From: Flaccisagitta enflata
Taxonomy: Eukaryota
Direction of reading: 5' to 3'
Assembly: GCA_965153355.1 (NCBI GenBank)
Contig: OZ231126.1
Location: 7,440,001-7,504,000 of the forward strand
Length of the DNA: 64,000 bases
This document shows, piece after piece, positions 1 to 63,030 of the stretch. A model generated the notes under the pieces. The model searched no databases and had not been told where the DNA came from. It saw nothing but the letters and a program-made list of their open reading frames with translations. Each line of letters opens with the position of its first letter. Positions within the stretch are counted from its first letter, which is position 1. A program made the translations under genes and the position numbers.

Positions 1-3000
1 CAGAATGCTGCAAGCCATATAGCGACTGGGCATCATTCGTCCACTGTCTAAAAGTATGGCGGTTAGGAGCAGCCCCAAGTTGGTTGATGAACAGCGCATC
101 TTTATTAACCCTGCAACCACTGGCTCTCAATCGCTGCTTAACAACTGACAATCCAGCCAGTACTTTACGAAGAAAATCCAGCATGTACCTTGGCCATATA
201 GCAAGATAAGCCCGTTTACCCGAGGCAATGCGTTTGTGAAAAACACTCGGGTGGTTTGAATTCTTGTTCGCCAAGTTGCCAGCTATTGTAAGAATTTCTT
301 GATCGGGATCATTGGCCTTATCAAATTCCTTGATGGCACTCTCTACCCCAGAGACAGTGACAGTGGTAGCATCAGAGGTTCTATTACAATTCCAAGTGCT
401 ATAAATAGCGTACGTGGAGTACATGACTACATGAAGGAGTAGTTTTAGATCATCCAATGGCATATTCTCCTTATCTGCTTCATGGAAAATATCAGCAACA
501 TAGTCAAATTTGCCATCAAGGATGGCTTTTGACAAATCAGAAGCCGTGTAATTTTCAATTTCTTCTGACTGCTCCTGACGATTATTTTGCCGACGATCCT
601 GTTGAATGAGCGAAATAGGATGGAATAGTGCCCTGATTTTCTTGTCATTCTCCTCAAAGCGTTGACTCTTTTCGAGTATGGATCCTTCAACCAAAAATGA
701 GTGAAATTTTCCACAATATTCTAGGGTTTTGTCAATGCAATCATACTTCCGTCCATTCTCAACGTGAAGCATGAGATATTGAGAAAGAAGTTGTACATCT
801 TCTAAACACCTGAAAGCAGCAGACTTATCATCTTCGTTGGTGATATCTAAACCTTTTTCTCGACAGACGAATGACAGGAACCGCGCGACAGCATTCACTA
901 TGTTAACATTTTTATCTCCAACACCTTCAATTTTTTTTTGATCAGCTTTACGACAGCCTTCGTACACTCGACAGTGCCTTACAAGATATTTTGCAAACGT
1001 GTATGGACCATCCTTATGTATAGGAGAAATGTAAGTAGTACTTATCACTGTATCATGAACCAAAGAATCAATGGGGGCAAATTTATTGCAATGAGTTTTC
1101 ACTGGCTCATACTGACCATCAATATGTGGAGAAAATGGGTCATCGATTCCATCTGGACGAAGGACACATTCAACTTCACAGTCCACTGAAGCATTGTCAC
1201 TAACTTCAGTTGCTTTGGCAATCTCAAGAAGTTCAGCCATTTCTTCTAGGCGATGTTGTTTTCTGAAGTGGATGTCCGGCTCATGCATGCCGGGCTCATT
1301 TTCAAAGTCGGAAACATCACTGAGGTCACTTACAAGATTTATAACCTGTATCGCATCCTTATTGACTTTGGTTCTTTTGCAGTTACGACTCAGTTTTGAT
1401 GACCGGGTTTGCTTTATGGGACTTGACTCGATGACAACTTTAAAGATGTTGGCCATATCCCCTTTTTTGATGGATGCCTCTTGCGAGGAGTGTTCTTCAG
1501 GTCTTGCATCGGAACCAAACAATGAAAGAGAACTCCCACGTTGCAATGGCTCAGCAGAAGATGAATCAACGGAGGATTGAGTGACAACAGGGTTTCTAAG
1601 GACAGGACTCTTGTCAATGTCTGAAAGATCACTTTCAACAGGGCATCCAGGCTGCAATGAACTTATTGTTGTGTTGACCACTAACTCTGATGTTGCTGGA
1701 CCTGGGATGTCATTTGATTTTTCTGCTCTATTTTCATCCACATTTTCTCCAACTCGTATCGTGGTGATTTCAACAGTATTAGCTCTCAAGGCACCACCAC
1801 TTTCGGTGCAAGGTGGCTGATTGGGCCCACCGCTATCTGATGCTCCACCTTCCTTTGAAGTATGCGATGCAACAACATCTTCATTAAAAGCTTGAGTGAA
1901 GCCGCCTTCATTTACCTGAGATGAAACATGCGCTGATGTCTTAGAGTCCTTTGTCTTGGATTTGGAGGAAGCTTTTCTTTTAGGTCTTGTCGCCTGTTGT
2001 TTATTTTCACTTGCTTGAGACTCGTTAGCTGACACCAATGTTGTACTGCTTAGTGGCTTCACAGGTGAAAGGGGTTTTTCAATGTGCAGTAGTGCGGGAC
2101 CAGTAGCCGATGATAACTGTATAGAGCTGATTGATATGGGAGCAACATCAGTAACTGGTAAAGTTGTGTTTGGGCTGATTGGAAAGTCATTACAGGATTG
2201 CGAACTAAGAGCAAGAGTTTGAGCGAAATCCTCCGCTTGAGTAAGGATTCCATCACCAAAAGTGACTGGAGAAAAGACCTGTGTTTCAAGTGTTTGGTCC
2301 TGTTGATCAGCTGGTTTGGGCCTTGCCTCAGCTTCCGTGCACACCATCTCCACAAAGGATGGATTTGGGAAGGGTGTAAAAGGGTCTGCGTCACTTCGAG
2401 TGGATGAATCTGGAAGATTAGCCAATGGAATCACACCAGGCACAGAGGGATCGCTACCCACAATGATGGAGCCATCTTCAATATTTGCACTCAATGGCTC
2501 TACAACATCTGATGAATGAACATTGACAATTCTATCGGAAAGTGGACGAAACTGAAACTTGGAAGCTGTGGTGGTTGCAACCGATTTAATGTTTGAAGAT
2601 AATGGCACTGCCACGGTTTCCAAACCTTTTCTTCTTCGAGAGGATCTCTTGCTGGCTGGTGCTGTTGTAGTTGACATTGTCGTTCTAGGCATTACCCTTG
2701 AGGCCGTTGACGTCTTTGTAAATGCTGTTGTGGTTGCCGCTGTTGCAGTTGTTGTGGTTGCGCCCATAGTTACTGCTGCTGTTGTGGTTTCTGTGATTAT
2801 GGTTGGCTTTGATGAGCTCCCTGCCGTTGTGCTTGCTGTTGCACTTGGCGCCATTGTGGTCGGTGCTGTTGTGCTTGCCGTTGCACTTGGCGCCATTGTG
2901 GTCGGTGCTGTTGTGCTTGCCGTTGCACTTGGCGCCATTGTGGTTGGTGCCATTATGGTTGGCGTAATTGTTGTAATGGCATTTAAGGATGTCACAGCTG

Positions 3001-4970
3001 CGTCAATTGCAGTCCCACTTCTCGCAGTGAAACTTCTTCCAACACTGGTTGTGTCCGTAATTGTTGTAGTTGTACTGGATGTAGTTGCGGTCACAACATT
3101 CGAAATGGCTTTGGTGGTATTGACTGACTCACTTGAGGGCACATCAGGAACTTCCCAATGACTTACTGCATCTGCTAGAAATGTAGCTTTTGGTGTATGA
3201 TCATCCATCACCCGGACATTGGTCACAGGTATAGCAGGACAAACAACAAGTTCTTTTTCTCCCAGATAATTGAATTTCAAAAATCGGTTACCTATGTCAT
3301 TGCATTTGAAGATTTGATCCCAAACTAGTTCCGGGCTTGAAGAACTGATATTCATGTTTTTCACAGTAGTCAATGGATTGGCTGAGTCATAATGTGAACG
3401 ATATTCTTGGTCCTTCAATTTTGCTCCCGACTGATGAAGGAACACGTCTTGCAAATCTTCACGATTGAGTGATAAGTGAAAAATCTCTTGCAGTGAAGGT
3501 ACCCCTTGCAAAGGAGATATGATGATGATGAATCGAATCATGAGAATGATGCTCAAGGCCACAAAATCAGCATAAGAGATTTCAAGCTTGTTGTAATTGG
3601 CACTGTAGTTTTGCTTGACGGATGATCCCGGAACACCTTTCAAAAAAGGGTAATCTGTCAATAGCTGGGTTTCAACATCTTTATTCCAATGATGAAGAAT
3701 CCAGTTTTTAACAACTGATCGAAGAGTGTAAAGCATTATCCAATATTCCTGCAAGTCAGGATCGATAACGGGCCAGAGACTTCTCAAGATTGCATGATAG
3801 CCACATTTTCCATCCATTTCACAGGGCAAAATGGCCATGGGATTTGGAAATCCCTCTATCTTCAAGATCTTGATGGGACGACTCATCTCAACCACACAAT
3901 TGGCCTCATAAACGCAAGTCCTGTAAAAGAACAGGTCACTGAGTTGCTCCTTAGAACTTGCCAAGACCTCAGGGCTTATTCCATATGCAGCTAGTTGGGC
4001 TAAAAATGATTCGGGGAAATTTTTGGCCGTCAAAGCAGTGGCATTCGAAGGAACAGCAGTCATAGGGGTCGAGCTTCTTCGCGATCGAAAAGGGGTAAGA
4101 AATGGATCGAGTAAAGGAGCACTGCTCGGCATCTCCCACTTGAACACCATACTTTGAAGGTATTCTGTCAAGTCTGGAGAACTGGAGTGTGGAGCAAGCG
4201 AAAGCCGAGTAATAACCTTCTTCCCGTCTGAGACAGCAATAGTTTTGACAGCTGAATCTGAGAAGCATAAGGTGATGCCACTTTCCAATACTGAAATACT
4301 CTTCAATGCAGGGTTAGCTTGCTTTAACAAATCATGAATTTGAGCAGCATGTGGTCCTGACAGCAAGTCTTCTAGAAAACACTTATCTCGAACTGTTTTA
4401 AGAGTGCAGATATAACCATCAGCACAGGTAACATTATGAGACTTGTCCTGCCCAGTGTTGCTTTTTGGCTGTTCTGGGCCAAGGCGAGGTCGCTTTTGTT
4501 GGGGACGTCTTTTATCTTGTGTAGGACCATATGGAGGTGAACATGGGGATATGGATGAATGTAAACTAGCTCCATCTGCAGGTAAAGTACTGGTGGCTTC
4601 TGGCTGAGCCTCGGAGATTGATCCATCAGAGGGTAGGGGAGTTGTAATAAGAGAAGCAGCTGATTCTGAGGGTGCTGCTCTATCAGATGGTGAAGATAGT
4701 TGTGGGGTAGCAGCTCTAGATTCAGGTTGATCCAGATTATTGGAGGCATCATCAACATTTGCCACCCCATCAAATTGATAGGAACCATGAGGTTGGAGGA
4801 GATTGGATGTTGATGGTGTTAAACGAAAAGGGTAAATAAGGTCCCCATGCAAGAAAACAAGACGCCGGTCCCCTCTTGATTCTTCCAATGAAACATGATT
4901 TTTGGCATAGTTGGGACCAAACATGTCTTTGTGAAGATAGTGGATCGCAAGACCGTTGGCTTCCACAAAC
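1..4970 (-). CDS. Giant exon (1656 codons, 3'-truncated by the window edge) encoding an OTU protease, an S/T-rich linker and a putative tyrosine recombinase
   Basis: I translated the frame whose codons start at 4969 by hand down to position 2 and found no stop. A tttgctctag acceptor precedes 4970. Motifs: DGKCGYHAI (Cys 3803-3805), LRSVVKNWI, HYDS (His 3392-3394), then NAVARFLSFV, QYLMLHVENGRKYDCIDKTLEYCGKFHSFL, WNCNRTSD (Arg 380-382), VFHKRIASGKRAYLAI and DALFINQLG. It is absent from the ORF track because the window contains no stop for it. Confidence 0.9.
2823..2950 (-). repeat. 42-bp coding tandem repeat, about 3 copies (MAPSATASTTAPTT)
   Basis: gttgtgcttgccgttgcacttggcgccattgtggtcggtgct repeats in frame within the giant ORF. 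Confidence 0.9.
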
Positions 4971-5027
4971 CTAGAGCAAAATAAAGGTAAATACTGGTTC
5001 AAGCTTAATGGTTTCCTTAAACTGATT

Positions 5028-7140
5028 CATTTGGACAATTTTGGACAACTTGACAACATTTGTACAATTTTAGATAACTTGACAGAATTTGGATAAAATT
5101 GGATAACTCGAAAAAATTTGGACAAAATTAGATAACTTGACAACATTTGGACAATTTTGGATAACTTGACAACATTTGGACTATTTTGGATAACTTGACA
5201 ACATTTGGACAATTTTTGATAACTTGACAACATTTGGACAATTTTGGATAACTTGACAATATTTGGACAATTTTGGATAACTTGACAACATTTGGACAAA
5301 TTTGGATAACTTGACAACATTTGGACAAATTTGGATAACTTGACAACATTTGGACAATTTTGGATAACTTGACAACATTTGGACAATTTTGGATAACTTG
5401 ACAACATTTGGACAATTTTGGATAACTTGACAACATTTGGACAATTTTGGATAACTTGACAACATTTGGACAATTTTGGATAACTTGACAACATTTGGAC
5501 AATATAGGATAACTTGACAACGTTTGAACAATTTTGGATAACTTGACAACATTTGGACAATATAGGATAACTTGACAACGTTTGAACAATTTTGGATAAC
5601 TTGACAACGTTTGAACAATTTTGGATAACTTGACAACGTTTGAACAATTTTGGATAACTTGACAACATTTGAACAATTTTGGATAACTTGACAACATTTG
5701 GACAATTTTGGATAACTTGACAGAACTTGGACAAAATTGGATAACTTGACGAAACTTGGACAAAACTGTATAACTATACAAAATTTGGACAAAATTAGAT
5801 GATTTTACCAAATTTGGATAAAATTAGATAACTTGACAACATTTGGACAATTTTGGATGACTTGACAACATTTGGACAATTTTGGATGACTTGACAACAT
5901 TTGGACAATTTTGGATGACTTGACAACATTTGGACAATTTTGGATGACTTGACAACATTTGGACAATTTTGGATGATTCAACAACATTTGGACAATTTTG
6001 GATGACTCGACAACATTTTGACAATTTTGGATGACTCGACAACATTTGGACAATTTTGGATGACTCGACAACATTTGGACAATTTTGGATGACTCGACAA
6101 CATTTGGACAATTTTGGATGACTCGACAACATTTGGACAATTTTGGATGACTCGACAACATTTGGACAATTTTGGATGACTCGACAACATTTGGACAATT
6201 TTGGATGACTCGACAACATTTGGACAATTTTGGATGACTCGACAACATTTGGACAATTTTGGATGACTTGACAACATTTGGACAATTTTGGATGACTTGA
6301 CAACATTTGGACAATTTTGGATGACTTGACAACCTTTGGACAATTTTGGATGACTTGACAACATTTGGACAATTTTGGATGACTTGACAACATTTGGACA
6401 ATTTTGGATGACTTGACAACATTTGGACAATTTTGGATGACTTGACAACATTTGGACAATTTTGGATGACTTGACAACATTTGGACAATTTTGGATGACT
6501 TGACAACATTTGGACAATTTTGGATGACTTGACAACATTTGGACAATTTTGGATGACTTGACAACATTTGGACAATTTTGGATGACTTGACAACATTTGG
6601 ACAATTTTGGATGACTTGACAACATTTGGACAATTTTGGATGACTTGACAACATTTGGACAATTTTGGATGACTTGACAACATTTGGACAATTTTGGATG
6701 ACTTGACAACATTTGGACAATTTTGGATGACTTGACAACATTTGGACAATTTTGGATGACTTGACAACATTTGGACAATTTTGGATGACTTGACAACATT
6801 TGGACAATTTTGGATAACTTGATAATATTAGTACAATATTTGATAAGTAGACAACATTTGGACAAAATTGGATAACCTGACAGTATTTGGACAAAATTGG
6901 ATAATTTTACAGAATTTGGACAAAATTGGATAAATTTAAAGAATTTGGACAAAATTGGATAACTTTAAAGAATTTGGACAAAATTGGATAACTTCACAGA
7001 ATTTGGACAAAATTGGATAACTTTACAGAATTTGGACAAAATTGGATAACTTGACAGAATTTGGATAAAATTGGATAACTTGACAGAATTTGGATAAAAT
7101 TGGATAACTTAGACAGAATTTGGACAATATTGGATAACTT
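5028..7140. repeat. 29-bp minisatellite array 1 (about 70 units), intronic
   Basis: Unit GGACAATTTTGGAT(A/G)ACTTGACAACATTT. A GGATAAC block (about 5130-5720) and a GGATGAC block (about 5840-6800) are homogeneous; the edges are degenerate. Confidence 0.97.
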
Positions 7141-11442: not shown

Positions 11443-11515
11443 AATTAGCTAAGTCACTGACCTGGAAAAAAAAGAGCAGCAAATGGCGATGAAAGTCAAC
11501 TTGTTAGATACCAAA

Positions 11516-14072
11516 CGCGACCAAATTTGGACAATTTGGTCAACCTGACCAAATTTGGACAATTAGGACAACGCAACCAAATTTGGACAATTTGGACAAC
11601 GCAACCAAATTTGGACAATTTGGACAACGCGACCAAATTTGAACAATATGGACAATGCCACCAAATTCAAACAATATGGACAATGCGACCAAATTTGGAC
11701 AATTTGGACAACACAACCAAATTTGCACAATTTTGACAACGCGACCAAATTTGAATAATTTGGACAACAAAACCAAATTTGGACAATTTGGACAATGCGA
11801 ACCAAATTTAGACAATTTGGACAACGCCACCAAATCTGGACAACGCCACCAAATCTGGACAACGCCACCAAATTTGGACAATTTTGACAATACAACCAAA
11901 CTTGGACAATTTGGACAAAGTGACCAAACTTGGACGATTTGGACAATGCGACCAAATTTGGACAATTTGGACAAAGCAACCAAAATTGGACAATTTGGAA
12001 AATACGACCAAATTTGGACAATTTGGAAAACGCGACCAAATTTGGACAATTTGGACAACGCGACCAAATTTGGACAATTTGGACAACGCGACCAAATTTG
12101 GACACTTTGGACAAGGCGACCAAATTTGGACAATTTGGACAAGGCGACCAAATTGGACAATATGGACAAGGCGACCAAATTTGGACAATTTAGACAACAC
12201 GACCAAATCTGTACAATTTGGACAACACAACCAAATTTGAACAATTTGGACAACGTGACCAAATATGGACAATTTGGACAATGCGATCAAATTTGGACAA
12301 TTTGGACAACGCGACAAAATTGGGACCATTTGGACAACGCGACCAAATTGGGACAATTTGGACAACATGACCAAATTCAGACAATTTGGACAACACGACG
12401 AAATTTGGACAATTTGGACAATGCGACCAAATCTGGACAACTTGAACAATAGGACCAAATTAGGACAACGCAACCAAATTTGGACAATGCGACCAAATTT
12501 AGACAACGCGACCAAATTTGGACAATTTGGACAACGCAACCAAATTCGGACAATTTGGACAAGGCGACCAAATTTGTACAATTTGGAAAAAGCGACCAAA
12601 CTTGGACAATTTGGACAAAGCGACCAAACTTGGACAAAGCGACCAAACTTAGACAATTGGACAAAGCGACCAAATTTGGACAAAGTGACAAAACTTGGAC
12701 AATGCAACCAAATTTGGACAATTTGGACAACGCGACCAAATTTGGACAATTTGGACAACGCGACCAAATTTGGACAATTTGGACAACGCGACCAAATTTG
12801 GACAATTTGGACAACGCGACCAAATTTGGACAATTTGGACAACGCGACCAAATTTGGACAATTTGGACAAGGCGACCAAATTTCGACAATTTGGACAAGG
12901 TGACCAAATTTGTACAATTTGGACAACACAACCAAATTTGTACAATTTGGACAACACGACCAAATTTGAACAATTTGGACAACATGACCAAATATGGACA
13001 ATCTGGACAATGCGACCAAATTTGGACAATTTGGAAAACGCGACCAAATTTGGACAATTTGGAAAACGCGACCAAATTTGGACCATTTGGACAACGCGAC
13101 CAAATCTGGACAATGCGACACAATTTGGACAATACAACAAAATTTGGACAACACGACCAAATTTGGACAATACGACCAAATTTGGACAATTTGGACAACG
13201 CGACCAAATATGGACAGCGCGACCAATTTTGGACAATTTGGAAAACGCTACCAAATTTGGACCATTGGACAACACGACCAAATTTGGACTATTTGGACAA
13301 CAGGACCAAATTTGGACAATTTGGACAACGCGACCAAATTTGGACAATGCAACTAAATTTGGACAATTCGGATAATACGACCAAATTTGGACAACACGAC
13401 CAAATTTGGACAATTTTGACAACGCGACCAAATTTGGACAACGCAACCAATTTTAGACAATATGGACAACGCAACCAAATTTGGACAATTTGGACAAAGC
13501 GACCAAATTTGGACAAAGTGACCGAAATTGGACAAAGCGACCAAATTTGGACAATTTGGATATCGCGACCAAATTTGGACAATTTGGACAACGCGACCAA
13601 ATTTGGACAATTTGGACAAAGCGACCAAATTTGAACAATTTGGACAACGCAACCAAATTTAGACAATTTGGACAACGCGACCAAGTTTGGACAATTTGGA
13701 CACACGACCAAGTTTGGACAATTTGGACAACGCGACCAAGTTTGGACAATTTAGACAACGCAACCAAATTTGGACAATGCGACTAAATCTGGACAATTTG
13801 GACAACGCGACCAAATTGGGACAATTTGGATTACGCGACAAAATTTGGACAACACAATCCATTTTAAACAACGCGACCAAATTTGGACAATGCGACAAAA
13901 TTTGGACGACGCGACCAAATTTGGACGACGCGACCAAATTTGGACAACACGACCAAATTTGGACAACGCGACCAAATTTGGACAACGCGACCAAATTTGG
14001 ACAACGCGACCAAATTTGGACAACGCGACCAAATTTGGACAACGTGACCAAATTTGGACAACGCGACCAAAT
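11516..14072. repeat. Minisatellite array 2 with mixed 28-bp and 19-bp units
   Basis: Units GACCAAATTTGGACAATTTGGACAACGC (28 bp) and GACCAAATTTGGACAACGC (19 bp); the array starts about 55 bp upstream of the acceptor at 11462. Confidence 0.97.
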
Positions 14073-14329
14073 TAGAGAACAGTGGCGCAAAAGTGACGTA
14101 ATAGTAAAGTTAAGATGTAATAGCTATTCAATTTTCAGCTTAATTGACCTAGTAGTTGCAAATTTTAGAGTTTCAAATTCCAAAAAAATCTGAACAGTAA
14201 TTGGGTCCACGACGGAGGGGGGTTAAAGATCACTAATTCCATAAAATCACCAATTCCATATAAACGCTATGACCAAAAGGTCCCTAACCCTATAAATTTG
14301 CTTAAACTATAAGTCTATCCACTTAGAGT

Positions 14330-17855: not shown

Positions 17856-18544
17856 AAAAATGTGATCGTATTTATCAACATGTATTCACATAACCTACAT
17901 GTTTTTCAAGCATTATCATGCAACGTAAATAAATAACACAAATTACCCTTTGATCCTGAATGCGTTCACGTAGGAGAAAATTACAGCAGGATCATCGCAA
18001 ACGCAATTTGAATATCCCATATGGGAGGTCGATTAAATCTCATGCATGCTCAACATTCAAACCTCACAGTGACAGACGAAAAAGTTTTCTCATATATGAA
18101 TCGAAACAAATCAACAAAAATTACCTCGCCTACTTCAGACTTTATGAAAAAAAATATGAGTGAAGAGGAATAAATCCATAAGTCCTAAAAGGTTGGGTAG
18201 TAGCAGTACCACAAATACCCATACACAAGCATGCACAACCCAAATCAATTCAAAACCGGGGTCACAATATTGTTGTGGGCAGGGCCATCAACTCCCATCC
18301 ATACCCCAACTCCCTACCCCCACACACGAACATCCACAAAAGTATCCAAATCACTTGTCTTTCCACATTTTGACTTGATCATTACCAACGGACCGACGGA
18401 GCCTCTTAAAGAGTAGCATGTCCGCAACTTCAAATGACAAAACAATGACAGCTTAAAATCATACCAACAAACGGAAGGACCGACACCTCACAGAGTACAG
18501 TTGCGCGTCCCTAACTAAAAAGGGACTGGAAAAAAATCACTCTG

Positions 18545-18850
18545 TCCAAATTTGGATAACTTGTCAAAATTTTAATAACTTGTCAAAATTTGGACAAGTT
18601 TTCCAAATTTGGATAACTTGTCCAAATTTGGATAACTTGTCCAAATTTGGATAACTTGTCCAAATTTGGATAACTTGTCCAAATTTGGATAACTTGTCCA
18701 AATTTGGATAACTTGTCCAAATTTGGATAACTTGTCCAAATTTGGATAACTTGTCCAAATTTGGATATTTTTTCAAAATTTTGATAACTTGTAAAAAGTT
18801 GGATAACTTGTCAAAATTCGGATAACTTGTCAAAATTTTGATGATTTTTC
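18545..18850. repeat. 19-bp minisatellite array 3 (about 15 units)
   Basis: Unit TCCAAATTTGGATAACTTG contains the perfect palindrome TCCAAATTTGGA and shares TTTGGATAACTTG with array 1. Confidence 0.95.
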
Positions 18851-19159
18851 AAAATTTATGTTCCCGGTTCAATTTTAGATAACTAGTACAAATCTGTAAA
18901 GATGTTACCCTTTGCAATCTCAATCCATGTCTCTTGCTATTTTAAGTGTTTTTAAGCGGATAATGATTCAAGGCTAAGGATTGGGTTGGGGATAGGATTA
19001 CGGCTCGTGTTTTCATTATATATTTTTAGCTTGAGTGTCTGAATAAGCTTCGCCCAGTGGGAATTTTGCCTAAAAAAAGCGTACACAGGATTGAATGTTA
19101 CGATAGCCATCAAAATTCGAATAACCTGTAAAATTTGGATATATTGTCCAATTTCGAAT

Positions 19160-20022: not shown

Positions 20023-34687
<14,665 letters not shown>

Positions 34688-37853: not shown

Positions 37854-38816
37854 ACAAGGCCGGATACACGGCTACCCTAGTCGCGTGCGGGTTGGCAGGA
37901 GCAGTGCTGGAGAAGGTCATTAGGGCATCTGGGCAGGAGCCGTATGCTCAAAAAGCTCAAAAGCGCCGAAAAAGTAAAAAGGGGACCAACCAACCAACCG
38001 ACCGACGCCAACAGACCGACGGACCGACATAGCAGGGTGTAGAGTCGCGTAGCACGCAACTAAAAAACGAGCCCGAGCGGGCAACTCGATGCGTCATCAG
38101 CGCGATATTAGAGAAAGAGTAACGGACATACCTAGGGACCGACGGACTGACAGACAGACGGACGGACCAACAGTACCTCTTATAGAGATGCGATTACGCA
38201 GCATAATAGAGTGAAAAGGGTAGAGGCATAAGTATTTGCAGAATGGAGACACCCGACAATAAGCAAAAGTTCTTTTAATCAAACCATAACGCTTGCACGG
38301 CATGGGGATATGAATTCTAAGACCTTCATGGTTTTCCTTTTGAGTTGCGGACATGCAACTCTATAAGAGGCTTTGTCTGTCGGTCCGTTGGTCCATTAAT
38401 CCATTGGTCCGTCCGGCCGTCAGCATGAGTCAAAAAGTGGAAAAACGCGCATATCCACCCCTGCCCACCCGTCCGCAACTGGTGGCTGTGTATCAGGCCT
38501 TGCTCCTATTTTCATTTATCTTCCGTTTTTGTTTCGCAAAAAACATTTCCAGCGTCATGCAAATTAGGATAAGAGGCAACATTTCTGTTTGTCTATCTAG
38601 TAGCTACAGTACCTTCCGAGCAAACCCGGCTAAAATTGGAGGATTAATTTTTGTTACTTTAATTTCAATTCCCAAACTTCATTTTTAGTTGCGGACACGC
38701 AACTCTATAAGAGCCTTTGTCCGTCCGTTGGTGTGCACGAGTCGAAAATGTGAAAACGCGCATATCCGCCCCTGCCCACCCGTCCGCAACTGGTATGGCC
38801 GTGTATCCAGCCTTGT
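37854..38816. mobile_element. Cluster of HINE-like elements (37854-38067 +, 38339-38502 -, 38682-38816 -)
   Basis: Each has an ACAAGGC-type start, GGGTGGGCAGG-type core, GACC/GACG repeats and a terminal TAGAGT(C/T)GCG...GC(G/A)ACT-type hairpin. Confidence 0.7.
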
Positions 38817-39112
38817 TTGTACATAACTTAATTAAAAGATACTTAATTCCTTGAACATATTTGGCTGTCAAAAAAAAATAACTCGTGAAATCAAAGTGCA
38901 TGAAGACATTAATATTCAGTGTTCTAACCCAGACCAGAGCAGGATCTTGACTAGGATTACCTCAACTTTCATTTGATCCCCTTTCACTCAGATTCACCAT
39001 CCTCATCGGGCGTAAGTCAGAACAGAAGCTAGATCGAAACACTACACTGCTTTGTCAGTCCGACTGTCTCCCTCTGACTGTCTCCTATTGTCTATCTCTT
39101 TTACCGTCTCCA

Positions 39113-40100: not shown

Positions 40101-42329
40101 CACAATCCCTGTATGGCTGCAAAGTTCTTGTAAACTGTATATTAATTTCAATTCTTGTTAGGTTTGATTAAAAGATGCAACAAGGTGATGATAGTGTACT
40201 TCAAATAGCCAGAAAAATGCATTTTTACCTAAAAAATTGCAAAAAAATGAATTTTTGAAGGGTGGGCCAAAAAATATTCCAAAATAGAGGTCAGATTTGT
40301 GTTCACCACAAAAAAATATGTCAGAGTAATGAAGTTCCAGAGTTTTTTGGCAATATTGACTCTACACTTCCTTTAGCTCCCTGACTAGAAAACAAAATCT
40401 GCAAAATTCTGTTTGAGTGTTCTCCCGTGAAAGTCTAAGTTTGCATAGAAACGTACAAAATCAAAAAAATAAACACATGGCCCTGTTCTACATTCACTAG
40501 AGATCACAGCCATGTTCTTGGAAATGCAAAATTTGACTCGTGGAGGCAGTCTTAGACTTTCACGTCCAAGAAATAATATTTTCAAAAGCCCTCAATCCTG
40601 ATATTTTTTCTGGAGTAAGGTCAAAATAAGCGGAAAAAAACTTTCGCGAGGGTGAATTTTTGGGACCTAATGATGGTCAGGGTTCCAACTGATGAAGATT
40701 AAATGGCGGTTTTGTGTTTGAGTCACTTATGATAATACAATACATCAAAATTCCCTGACTTCTCTGAATATGCAAATTTGTTTCGCAACCAGAGGGAGGT
40801 ACATGTTTTTAGGGACTCTTGCTTCTTGGCTGGGAGTAAATACCAGTGAACACAAGAAGTCGCACCGTAGGTCTATGGCACCACCCATAACCGGTCATTT
40901 AGTCTTCTGGTCTATATCATACAAAGAAAATATGATATCACACTCAAGAGGTAGGAAAATGTCGCAACGCTAGATTCTCCCTTTGGTGGAATTTCCCAAA
41001 GAGGTTTTTGCTATTTCCTTCTTGTTTCTGGACTTGGAATCGGTTCAAGCATGTCAATAGGTACCTTAGCTATTTTCCCACTGGTGTAAAGGATGGAGGG
41101 AACAAAACGGAAAAGATTTAAATGTGTTTTACACCTAAAAACTTGATGAAAAAATTGTTTTTTGATCATCAACACTGCGACATAAGGGTTACGAAATCAT
41201 TTTAAACGATAAAATTTTTTGAAGCCTGTAATTTGGATGATAACGGATGAGACCATGTTCCATAACTTGCTCGATTTTCCCTCCTTGATCTGAGAGGCAC
41301 GATTCAGATTTCCGCTTCGGTTCTTCGATTTGCGAGTATCAAGACGGCAATATTGATATAGAAACAACAACAGCAACAACTAGAACGATAATAACGTCTG
41401 GATTTACGAAAAGCAGCAACAAGTGACGCGGGGTCAAAATATCGTTGCGGACGGTCGAGCCGGGGTATCCAACCCCTATCCACACCTTATGACCCCACAC
41501 ATACATTTAAAACCCTACAAAACGCTCATTTTCGCACTTTTTGACTCACATCCCCCACCCCACTACCCCCACCGTCCAACATGAGTGACATAACCTCCGA
41601 AAAAGCGGGATACAGCACCAGTGCGATCCGAGTGGGCAGAGACGGTAATGCGGATGGATGGGCGGGGGCTATAATGTGGTTGTGCGGGTGCATTTATGCT
41701 CACAAGTACAGTTTCTTTCAGTTTGACATCTCTCAAAAATTCGCTTTCGGACTGACCCTCCTTCCAAGGGACGCACAGACACACCCTAGTCGGTACTGTT
41801 TTCGAACTCGCTGATGTCTTTTGTTTTACTGACTTTCTAAGCGGGTATTTATTAAGGGTTAGGGGTAGGGTTAGGGATGAGGTTGGGGTTGGGGGTGGTT
41901 TAAAGGTTAGGGTTAGGGTCAGGGCTAGCGTTAGGGCTAGACGAGAGCTGGGTTTTATACATTTCAACCCGAATCTTCTCGAATTAAAGCTTTCCCCAAA
42001 CGGGAAAACCCGGTAAAAACAAAAGATCAGTACAACGTCTTCGAAATTTCTTCCCAGACACACCTTCATGAAAAGTCGCTAAGCAAGCGACTAGAAAGCG
42101 AATGAAAAACCAACCCGACAGAATATAAATTGAATTAAGCAGACTGGATTGAGTTAAATCTGATATCCGGTATCCTCAGTCAGTCCTCAGTCGTTACCAC
42201 TCCTCAACCCAATCCAACATCATTCACCGAGACTGAAGCAAGGCAGAGACTAAACAACCCCCCCCCTTCCGCCAAGAAGGGATAGTCGCAAAAGCGTTAG
42301 ATGGTCAATGCGACGGTAACCGTGCCCTA

Positions 42330-58342: not shown

Positions 58343-58893
58343 CAGGCGTGCATTTTTTGGAGTAACCAGTAACGCCGTTACTCGGAAGGACGCGGGGCCT
58401 CTCGGAATAGGGAGAAGAAGAAGAAGAAGAAGAAGAAGAAAAAGAAGAAAAACAAAAAGAAAAAGAAGAAGAAGAAGAAGAAAAAGAAAGGGAGAAGAAG
58501 AAAATGAAAAAGAAAAAGAAGAAGAAGAAGAAGAAGAAGAAGAAGAAGAAGAAGAAGAAGAAGAAGAAGAAGAAGAAGAAGAAGAAGAAAGAACAAGGCC
58601 GGATACATGGCTACCGAAGTCGCGTGTGGGTGGGCAGGGATAGTGATAAAAAGGGCTTTTCATACATTTGGGCAGGAGCAGACATGCAAAAACTGTTCAT
58701 ATTTGCCAAAAAAACTAATGGTGACAAACCAACGGACAAACAAACCGACATAGCGGTTTAAGGAGTTGCGTGCGTGCGACTGAAAAAAAAAAGAAAATAG
58801 CAGAGTAAAAAAAAAGTAAAAAAAGAACGTGAGAGACAGAGAGAGAGACAGACTGAGAGAGAGACATAGAAAAAGAGACAGAGACAGAGAAAA

Positions 58894-61906: not shown

Positions 61907-63030
61907 ACAAGGCCGGATACACGGCAATCCAGTCGCGGACAGTTGGGCAGGAGCAGTGATGCAAAAAACGCTCACAATTCAAAAATGTTACGGAGAGACA
62001 GACGGACCGACCGACCGACACAGCAAGGTGTAGAGTCGCGTGTCCGCGAATAAAAATCGCGGATGGATGGACAGGGGCGCAAAATACCCTAAAGGTAGTT
62101 GTTGACCGAGAAACGGATCAACGGACGGACCAACAGACACACCGATGGACCAAACGACTGAAGATGACGAACAATACTGGACAATCTACTGGACAATCAA
62201 CTGGGCAATCATATGACTAGGTCATACTGAGACTTGACATAGTTGTGTTAATAACTGATGAGTGAGGGAAGTGAGGAAGAGGAGCAGAAAGAGAGGGCGG
62301 AGTTGTTCCACTTTGAAAGACACCAAAAACAAAGAATCTATTTGTTCTTCACAGAACAATTCTCACTTAATTCAACTCACAAAGACACAAACGATTCAAA
62401 ATTAAACAAAACCTATTTAAAGTGAAAAAAATTTCGGAGTTTTTCTTTTCTTTTTCTTAGGTGCGACAAAGCACCTCTATAACTGGCTGTGTCCGTTGGT
62501 TGGTCGGTTGGTCGGTTGGTCGGTTGGTAACGCATTCGTTCGACGATCCACACCGTCGCACCTATTGGCCTATATGGCCTTGTTTCTTATCAAGTTGCAC
62601 GCACGTCGCACGCGACTGGAAATTATCAAGTCCAAAATCATTTTTTCGTCAGTCCATCCATAAGTCCGTATTGCCTATGTTTTGGTTTCGTTCTACCGCA
62701 CCGTCACTCTTGAGTCTTGACCATTTTAAAAAAATCAAAATTAAAGTGGGGGGGAGGGGGGGGTGGTTAATTTTTGGACCAGTGCCGGGGCTTCTCAACG
62801 ATTGCTCGTTTTAAAACTAAATCGTGGTAAAACAAGGCCGGATACACGGCTACCCAATTCGCGTGTGGGTGGGTACTGGGTAGTGGCCGTATTTGAGGTC
62901 ACTAAAGCATTTGGGGAGGAGAAATTAGGTCAAAGAAAAATGAGAACAAATTATGACCGACCGACCGACCAACTGACCGACCGACGGACGTACTAAAGCA
63001 GGGTTTTTAGAGTCGCGTAGCAACTGACTA
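61907..63030. mobile_element. Cluster of HINE-like elements (61907-62056 +, 62457-62583 -, 62831-63030 +)
   Basis: ACAAGGCC starts and terminal hairpins as in the other copies. Confidence 0.65.

Follow-up and report, generated by a model that had tools for sequence, protein, structure and literature searches.

The stretch analysed here, called the window below, comprises 64,000 nucleotides (nt) of Flaccisagitta enflata DNA (contig OZ231126.1, positions 7,440,001 to 7,504,000 of the forward strand), and the subject of this work is a giant open reading frame (ORF) that runs off its left edge on the minus strand. The last part of this ORF, at window positions 2-1162, in our view probably encodes a tyrosine recombinase (YR) domain. 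The enzyme would most likely be that of a Crypton-like mobile element or of a recent descendant of such an element. The features of the ORF and of its recombinase-like part are the following, with residues numbered in amino acids (aa) along the translated ORF:

2-5002, minus strand: giant ORF without introns, 1667 codons long and open at the left window edge; its first Met codon is number 27 (window 4922-4924)
2-1162, minus strand: region homologous to a YR-like family, aa 1281-1667 (N-terminal extension, core-binding helices, and catalytic domain up to the F-I-N..G motif)
692-895, minus strand: core-binding (SAM-like) helices, aa 1370-1437, paired by hhalign with the N-terminal domain of XerD
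866-895, minus strand: NAVARFLSFV, aa 1370-1379
692-781, minus strand: QYL...HSFL, aa 1408-1437
353-394, minus strand: WNCNRTSDATTVTV, aa 1537-1550, containing R1541
380-382, minus strand: R1541, candidate box-I catalytic Arg, part of an N-x-x-R-x-x-D motif and preceded by a hydrophobic helix
263-265, minus strand: K1580, the invariant Lys of a K-N-S-H motif, located where the long strand 2-3 loop begins
197-244, minus strand: VFHKRIASGKRAYLAI, aa 1587-1602, with K1590 at 233-235
191-196, minus strand: W-P, aa 1603-1604, where strand 3 ends, matching the 'vPL' position of XerD
74-100, minus strand: DALFINQLG, aa 1635-1643, counterpart of the YR 'LF....G' motif

By our own arithmetic, which assumes about 5% stops per codon, the chance of an ORF of 1667 codons is approximately 1e-37. 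The ORF is fully covered by DNA contigs of the same organism (run X1), one of which reaches 897 nt further left, and pieces of it, 151-207 nt long and 99-100% identical, occur in two marine metagenomes. In the 6% that was read of one poly-A RNA run of the organism there were 0 reads from it, an amount too small to count as a test of expression. The five motifs quoted in an earlier note on this DNA, which had read the domain as a divergent YR, all lie in this minus-strand frame where the note had placed them.

With the last 368 residues as query, a complete HMMER search of 1.84 billion representatives returned 19 relatives with E-values from 3e-39 to 3e-4, eight of them at 1e-10 or below; the best relative (3e-39) is 31% identical across approximately 348 residues. 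Since window 2-1162 is homologous to these 19 proteins, the stretch that carries the quoted motifs is no chance pattern. Ten relatives were looked up, and all are unnamed proteins from ENA metagenome assemblies with cluster sizes of 1-5. When 24 family proteins (P0002-P0026; P0016 had no match) were compared with the window by tblastn the matches were confined to 2-1162, meaning that the remainder of the giant ORF is not common to the family proteins. A word-indexed homologue search with the C-terminal region against proteins of 916-2918 aa gave no matches, and the same kind of search with the profile of an alignment of 20 family sequences (A2) recovered P0027 and P0011 only. No relatives were found in IMG/VR and the JGI metagenome contigs, nor was an exact match to the first 48 bases of the window, and none of the databases searched held a named orthologue. 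Judged by sequence similarity, the domain is a member of a small, unnamed family that is invisible to Pfam.

The conservation of the presumptive catalytic residues was read from alignment A2, each column being counted over the covering sequences only. The divergent relative P0018 was left out of this alignment; by eye it has a His at the box-I position. The Arg at 380-382 (R1541), which the earlier note had put forward as catalytic, stands up well: its column contains R in 10 of 11 sequences, a D or E follows three residues on in all 11, and it aligns with the box-I Arg of XerD. The choice of the Lys at 233-235 (K1590) as the catalytic Lys fares less well, since this column contains K in only 5 of 10 sequences, whereas the Lys at K1580 is invariant (12 of 12), and by its conservation K1580 would be the best candidate. 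It lies two columns off the XerD Lys in the hhalign comparison described below, and the strand 2-3 loop is poorly modelled, with a predicted local distance difference test score (pLDDT) below 50. The W-P pair is likewise well conserved (in 11 sequences W occurs 10 times and P without exception), as is the F-I-N..G motif (F in all 11 sequences, G in 10 of them).

The residues to be expected after this point can be followed in the relatives. A second Arg, with W or F directly before it, is present in all nine relatives that reach past the window's cut, so that the Arg of the HxxR box predicted by the earlier note is there, but its His mostly is not: three residues before this Arg the nine relatives have R (5), H (2), C (1) and T (1). 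An H-x8-Y-R motif follows in all seven relatives that reach that far. The conserved residues of the family thus follow the canonical YR order, i.e. R, K, (H)xxR, H and Y. In the copy of the window the second Arg would lie about 5 codons, and the Tyr about 51 codons, beyond position 1; these distances come from the alignment with P0004, the closest relative that spans the cut (approximately 50% identical). Since these two residues and the His between them all lie past the edge, whether this copy is active cannot be judged inside the window, as the earlier note had recognised.

The assignment to the YR superfamily is supported by a profile comparison, by fold matches and by the downstream residues of the relatives, in agreement with the earlier note; both a YR fold match and a second Arg and Tyr, whose absence that note had named as an argument against its reading, were found, the residues in the relatives. 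In the profile comparison, alignment A2 was matched by hhalign to an alignment of 13 PF00589 proteins of E. coli K-12. The local mode gave a probability of 60% (P 8.6e-5, score 42.9, 197 columns) and the global mode 86% (P 5.6e-7), and the 22 controls (20 column-shuffled templates, the reversed template and the reversed query) reached a best score of 18.6, with P at least 0.19. With A2 trimmed to the window's last residue, the P values were 2.3e-4 in local and 6.1e-6 in global mode. The pairing covers both domains: the QYL...HSFL helices fall on the N-terminal domain of XerD, the family box-I Arg on the Arg of 'TGLRVSE', the F-I-N..G motif on the 'LF' region, and the W-R of the family on H-x-L-R. 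The H/Y stretch of the family is misaligned in a low-confidence extension, which fits the approximately 14 extra residues that the family has between the second Arg and the His.

Other profile libraries gave faint signals. Among the 20 family sequences, Phage_int_SAM_1 (E 0.027) and Integrase_2 (E 0.08) were each matched weakly by one member and the XerC model TIGR02224 by two (best E 0.025). No integrase family was found in PHROGs, and a sequence search of the PDB with the last 368 residues gave chance-level matches only. With the A2 profile the best PDB match was chain 9i5v_14 (E 0.083), a chain of 401 aa that bears the name of the ribosome-associated inhibitor RaiA; this name may not fit the chain, whose aligned stretches resemble a Xer-type N-terminal domain and an 'LF..G' motif. 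The protein-language-model features of the YR part (Atlas) place clusters of ResT/TelK and of Phage_int_SAM_1 at 0.93, a lead only, and 28 of its 30 Atlas neighbours are without a family.

The fold was addressed with two AlphaFold models, one of the P0002 domain (model 1, 445 aa, pLDDT 79.9) and one with P0006 as target (model 2, pLDDT 68.8). When model 1 was compared with the PDB by Foldseek, YR enzymes occupied 28 of the 44 rows listed, including ranks 1-9, among which are Tn1549 Int, XerA, XerH, a staphylococcal integrase and Cre; the E-values were at least 0.037 and the template modelling (TM) scores at most 0.38. Four further rows were phage repressors (YopR, MrpR and SroF), of which we take YopR and MrpR to be integrase-fold proteins, SroF being uncertain, and the other 12 rows were unrelated, with probabilities of at most 0.12. 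Against the viral models of BFVD, model 1 matched the Mx8 integrase first (E 8e-3, probability 0.99), and 19 of 50 rows were named integrase or VLF-1. For model 2 the 11 best PDB rows were all YRs, with 3nkh_A at a probability of 0.99, an E-value of 0.021 and a TM-score of 0.46. Taken alone, these predicted folds are weakly consistent with a YR.

The earlier note had also placed the domain at the C-terminus of the giant protein. In the relatives the protein continues for roughly 165 to 600 residues after the domain, which in the two longest ones (1255 and 1512 aa) is situated mid-protein; since the relatives extend past it, the window protein, too, probably continues beyond the domain. P0002, P0003 and P0006 have in common a short, basic, Arg/Lys-rich stretch after the YR domain (seen by eye), which in P0006 lies near the protein end and is modelled as two long helices with a pLDDT of approximately 68-82. 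The copy of the window may carry a similar basic tail beyond the edge.

Upstream of the recombinase-like region the giant ORF encodes a long linker and a segment that resembles OTU proteases:

1163-3082, minus strand: Ser/Thr/Ala/Pro-rich linker, probably disordered, approximately aa 641-1280 (S 93, T 86, A 64 and P 47 of 640 residues)
3392-3805, minus strand: OTU-protease-like segment, recognised by its Cys box D-G-x-C, its His box H-Y-D and its language-model neighbours
3803-3805, minus strand: Cys of D-G-x-C, aa 400
3392-3394, minus strand: His of H-Y-D, aa 537 (hand-counted from the translation), 137 residues from the Cys

Within the linker there is a tandem repeat at 2822-2950 (minus strand, 3.1 copies of a 42-bp unit, 96% matches); the unit encodes a 14-residue Ala/Pro/Thr/Ser-rich peptide that is present three times. 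In the OTU-like part, the Atlas features of aa 300-640 place it among OTU proteins (23 of the 30 nearest clusters, score 0.91, 173 shared features), and the segment has no Pfam match (PF02338 included), no PDB sequence match and no homologue in these searches. We regard an OTU-like cysteine protease in aa 300-640 as a candidate and as a lead only. Fusions of this kind are known from eukaryotic DNA transposons: according to the excerpts of the respective papers, OTU domains are fused in Ginger1 and Helitrons (PMC2836005) and in Helentrons (PMC6431247), and CryptonS and CryptonF carry the cysteine peptidase Ulp1 (PMC3212892). We counted the recurrence of OTU and Ulp1 fusions in favour of a mobile-element context. 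Among the titles and abstract openings that our literature search covered, none describes an element that pairs a Crypton or a YR with OTU.

If this reading is right, the window contains the first three quarters of a YR domain, i.e. the core-binding helices and the beginning of the catalytic part. A single frame, longer than 1667 codons, would join this domain to the OTU-like segment and the long disordered linker. The enzyme would then be expected to work like Cre, XerD or lambda Int. Its two domains would close around the DNA, the scissile phosphate would be activated by the two Arg together with the Lys and the His, and the Tyr would form a 3'-phosphotyrosyl link, after which the strands would be exchanged and rejoined without an energy cofactor.

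A number of results weigh against this interpretation. Firstly, Pfam is silent. It lists no family for the 1667-aa protein at E 1 and none for ten relatives at E 0.1; PF00589, the family against which the earlier note had proposed a search, is unlisted for the 20 family sequences even at E 10, and no Pfam threshold was reached. Secondly, the remote comparisons are of modest strength: the local hhalign probability is only 60%, the window sequence alone is not recognised by the YR profile (P 0.06), and the Foldseek E-values range from 0.008 to 1, none at or below 0.001, with TM-scores not above 0.46. Thirdly, three of the catalytic residues (second Arg, His and Tyr) are not visible for the copy of the window, and the OTU-like segment has only its motifs and one language-model look-up behind it. 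Finally, neither element termini nor a target-site duplication nor an empty site was seen, a second copy of the domain was not found in the 64-kb window by tblastn of the family proteins, and the DNA contigs of run X1 contain no other long match at 90% identity or more, only low-complexity pieces, which together make for a weak test of copy number.

The first two groups of results, together with the PDB sequence search, are what would be expected if the region were a helical domain of some other function that resembles a YR by chance. Yet the profile comparison, two fold models searched against two libraries and the single-sequence matches agree on one superfamily while the controls stay clean, although all these lines rest on the same family alignment. 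In addition, five conserved polar residues occur in the canonical order, and hhalign pairs both Arg with the catalytic Arg of the YRs. We consider a chance resemblance the least probable of the explanations discussed here, and very unlikely.

The surroundings of the ORF bear on the question of where such a recombinase comes from. In its general character the window resembles the nuclear DNA of a eukaryote: it contains 74 tandem-repeat rows, many of them microsatellites, has no Rfam families, and apart from low-complexity frames its long ORFs are few, the giant ORF being the exception. Its further features are:

5028-7140: 29-bp satellite array with 73 copies, beginning 25 nt upstream of the giant ORF
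11514-14073 (28/19-bp units) and 18543-18857 (19-bp units): related satellite arrays
20172-20543, minus strand: second dynein-like exon ORF, without a Pfam match at E 0.01
30661-30972, minus strand: dynein heavy-chain exon, PF12774 (AAA_6), E 3.9e-13
25024-25386, 38668-38961, 41545-41811, 58508-58750 and 61960-62217, on both strands: dispersed short repeat with an 'ADGWAGA'-like peptide in translation

The exon at 20172-20543 is read as dynein-like by a motif that resembles one of the dynein AAA2 region. Both exons lie upstream of the giant ORF on the same strand, and as a dynein heavy chain needs thousands more codons, we infer that the giant ORF may sit in an intron of the dynein gene. The three satellite arrays have a TTTGGACAA-like core in common, and the palindrome CCAAATTTGG is present in two of the consensus units. 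A 94-bp unit, repeated about 7.8 times with 95% matches at 30065-30797, covers the 3' end of the dynein exon and the sequence that follows, and each copy of it retains the same short reading frame. The dispersed repeat with the 'ADGWAGA'-like peptide is probably a short element resembling a SINE (short interspersed nuclear element) or a MITE (miniature inverted-repeat transposable element).

As the gene is intronless and lies in an intron-rich and satellite-rich genome of a marine eukaryote, we take it to be most likely the recombinase of a Crypton-like element. That the 5-kb intronless ORF adjoins the short dynein exons was counted for a mobile-element context, as was the 90%-identity cluster of one relative, which comprises five variants, each on a separate contig. 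The same locus could be read as a domesticated host gene that was derived from a YR element, as the DUF3504 genes were from Cryptons, and that now has a cellular role and is immobile. There is a precedent in the domestication of Cryptons, as described in the excerpt of PMC3212892; the ORF is intact over 5 kb, and both its single occurrence in the window and the lack of a further long match at or above 90% in the organism's DNA contigs suit a host gene. This explanation is less easily reconciled with the catalytic residues, as the relatives retain the complete set, whereas the DUF3504 genes are without the full tetrad according to the same excerpt (PMC3212892). Moreover, the family members have the YR domain alone in common, a pattern typically met in mobile genes that evolve fast, the ORF lacks introns amid a genome of short exons, and no orthologue in the databases searched bears a name. 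On balance a domesticated gene appears unlikely to us.

A viral source was considered as well, namely that the ORF is a piece of a large DNA virus that had integrated into the genome and carried an OTU protease and a YR integrase. The nearest feature clusters of the OTU segment are 98-100% viral, mostly Nucleocytoviricota, the two nearest Atlas clusters of the YR part are mostly viral, and baculovirus VLF-1 and proteins of Feldmannia virus are among the BFVD matches; the Atlas itself states, however, that the taxa of its feature clusters are no evidence of origin. The 59 kb to the right consist of satellites, microsatellites and dynein exons and contain no viral-type ORFs, IMG/VR holds no relative, and the fusion of protease, disordered linker and recombinase into one ORF is unlike the separate genes of viruses. 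We therefore think it very unlikely that a viral fragment is present, if a little less so than a chance resemblance.

Returning to the recombinase of a Crypton-like element, one may go a step further and speculate that the ORF is the first representative of a hitherto undescribed superfamily of mobile YR elements in marine eukaryotes, characterised by a giant-ORF fusion of OTU, linker and recombinase and by a topoisomerase-IB-like R-x-x-R site; the satellite arrays might then be recombination or landing sites. This proposal is tentative and we would rather doubt it in its full form. What we consider probable is that the domain is a Pfam-invisible variant of a known enzyme class and comes from an undescribed lineage of mobile elements. 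To our knowledge the eukaryotic YR lineages described are few (DIRS/Ngaro/VIPER, Cryptons, Starship captains and some viral integrases), and each new one has altered views on the movement of large DNA segments. As the present family is invisible to Pfam, unnamed and represented by only 19 relatives in 1.84 billion proteins, standard transposon annotation would miss it. If the OTU-YR fusion is true, the recurrent association of ubiquitin-like proteases with transposases would reach a third class of enzymes, and if the family is active, it would offer a new site-specific recombinase scaffold that is native to eukaryotes.

It is instructive to set the family beside the known recombinase systems. 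The closest in layout are the bacterial and phage enzymes XerC/XerD, Cre, lambda Int and Tn1549 Int (PF00589 and PF02899), which have the same two domains, a helical core-binding one followed by the catalytic one, and the same order of motifs (R, K, LF..G, xxxR, H, Y). They are also the best fold and profile matches of the family, and the spacing from H to Y, 9 residues in XerD, is equal in both. The differences are nevertheless considerable: the identity to the family is approximately 10%, and the family reaches no threshold of Pfam or of any other curated model. The distance from the second Arg to the His is 37 residues as opposed to 23 in XerD, i.e. about 14 residues longer. With respect to Xer-type YRs there are in addition a long strand 2-3 loop and an extra N-terminal extension, and the domain of the window is embedded in an ORF that exceeds 1667 codons.

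Among eukaryotic elements the Cryptons are similar in general organisation, with an intronless ORF in which the YR is the only recognisable DNA-processing domain; for the present gene no reverse transcriptase was found in the ORF or the visible flank. Some Cryptons also possess a cysteine peptidase, Ulp1, as the excerpt of PMC3212892 states; the putative protease of the present ORF differs in being OTU-like and in lying in the same frame. From the same source, animal Cryptons are much shorter and without an extra C-terminal domain, and the YRs of CryptonA match DUF3504 at E 8e-12 or better (PMC3212892, excerpt). We rejected CryptonA as a class, DUF3504 (PF12012) being unlisted for the 20 family sequences at E 10 and for the window protein at E 1. 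A YR retrotransposon of the DIRS/Ngaro type was rejected too, with neither reverse transcriptase nor RNase H found in the giant ORF or in the ORFs of the visible right flank of approximately 59 kb, and so was a Starship captain, as DUF3435 is unlisted for the window protein (E 1), for ten relatives (E 0.1) and for the 20 sequences (E 10).

The combination of an OTU-like protease with a DNA-processing enzyme in one ORF is found in Ginger1 and in animal Helitrons and Helentrons, aquatic invertebrates included, as far as the excerpts of PMC2836005 and PMC6431247 go. The partner is a DDE integrase or a Rep-helicase in these elements, not a YR, and their OTU domains match PF02338 while the segment of the window does not. 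Turning to the active site, the family is reminiscent of type IB topoisomerases in that a basic residue replaces the His three positions before the second Arg. Poxvirus topoisomerase IB has K-x-x-R at this place. In the fold search, however, a type IB topoisomerase was listed only at rank 21 with a probability of 0.06 (model 2 against the PDB). Telomere resolvases have their ResT/TelK feature cluster at 0.93, a lead only, as mentioned above, yet they appear in no fold-search listing. The N-terminal domain draws the comparison back to the first group: in the family it resembles the SAM-like domain of the Xer enzymes, in which respect the family is unlike both the type IB topoisomerases and the telomere resolvases.

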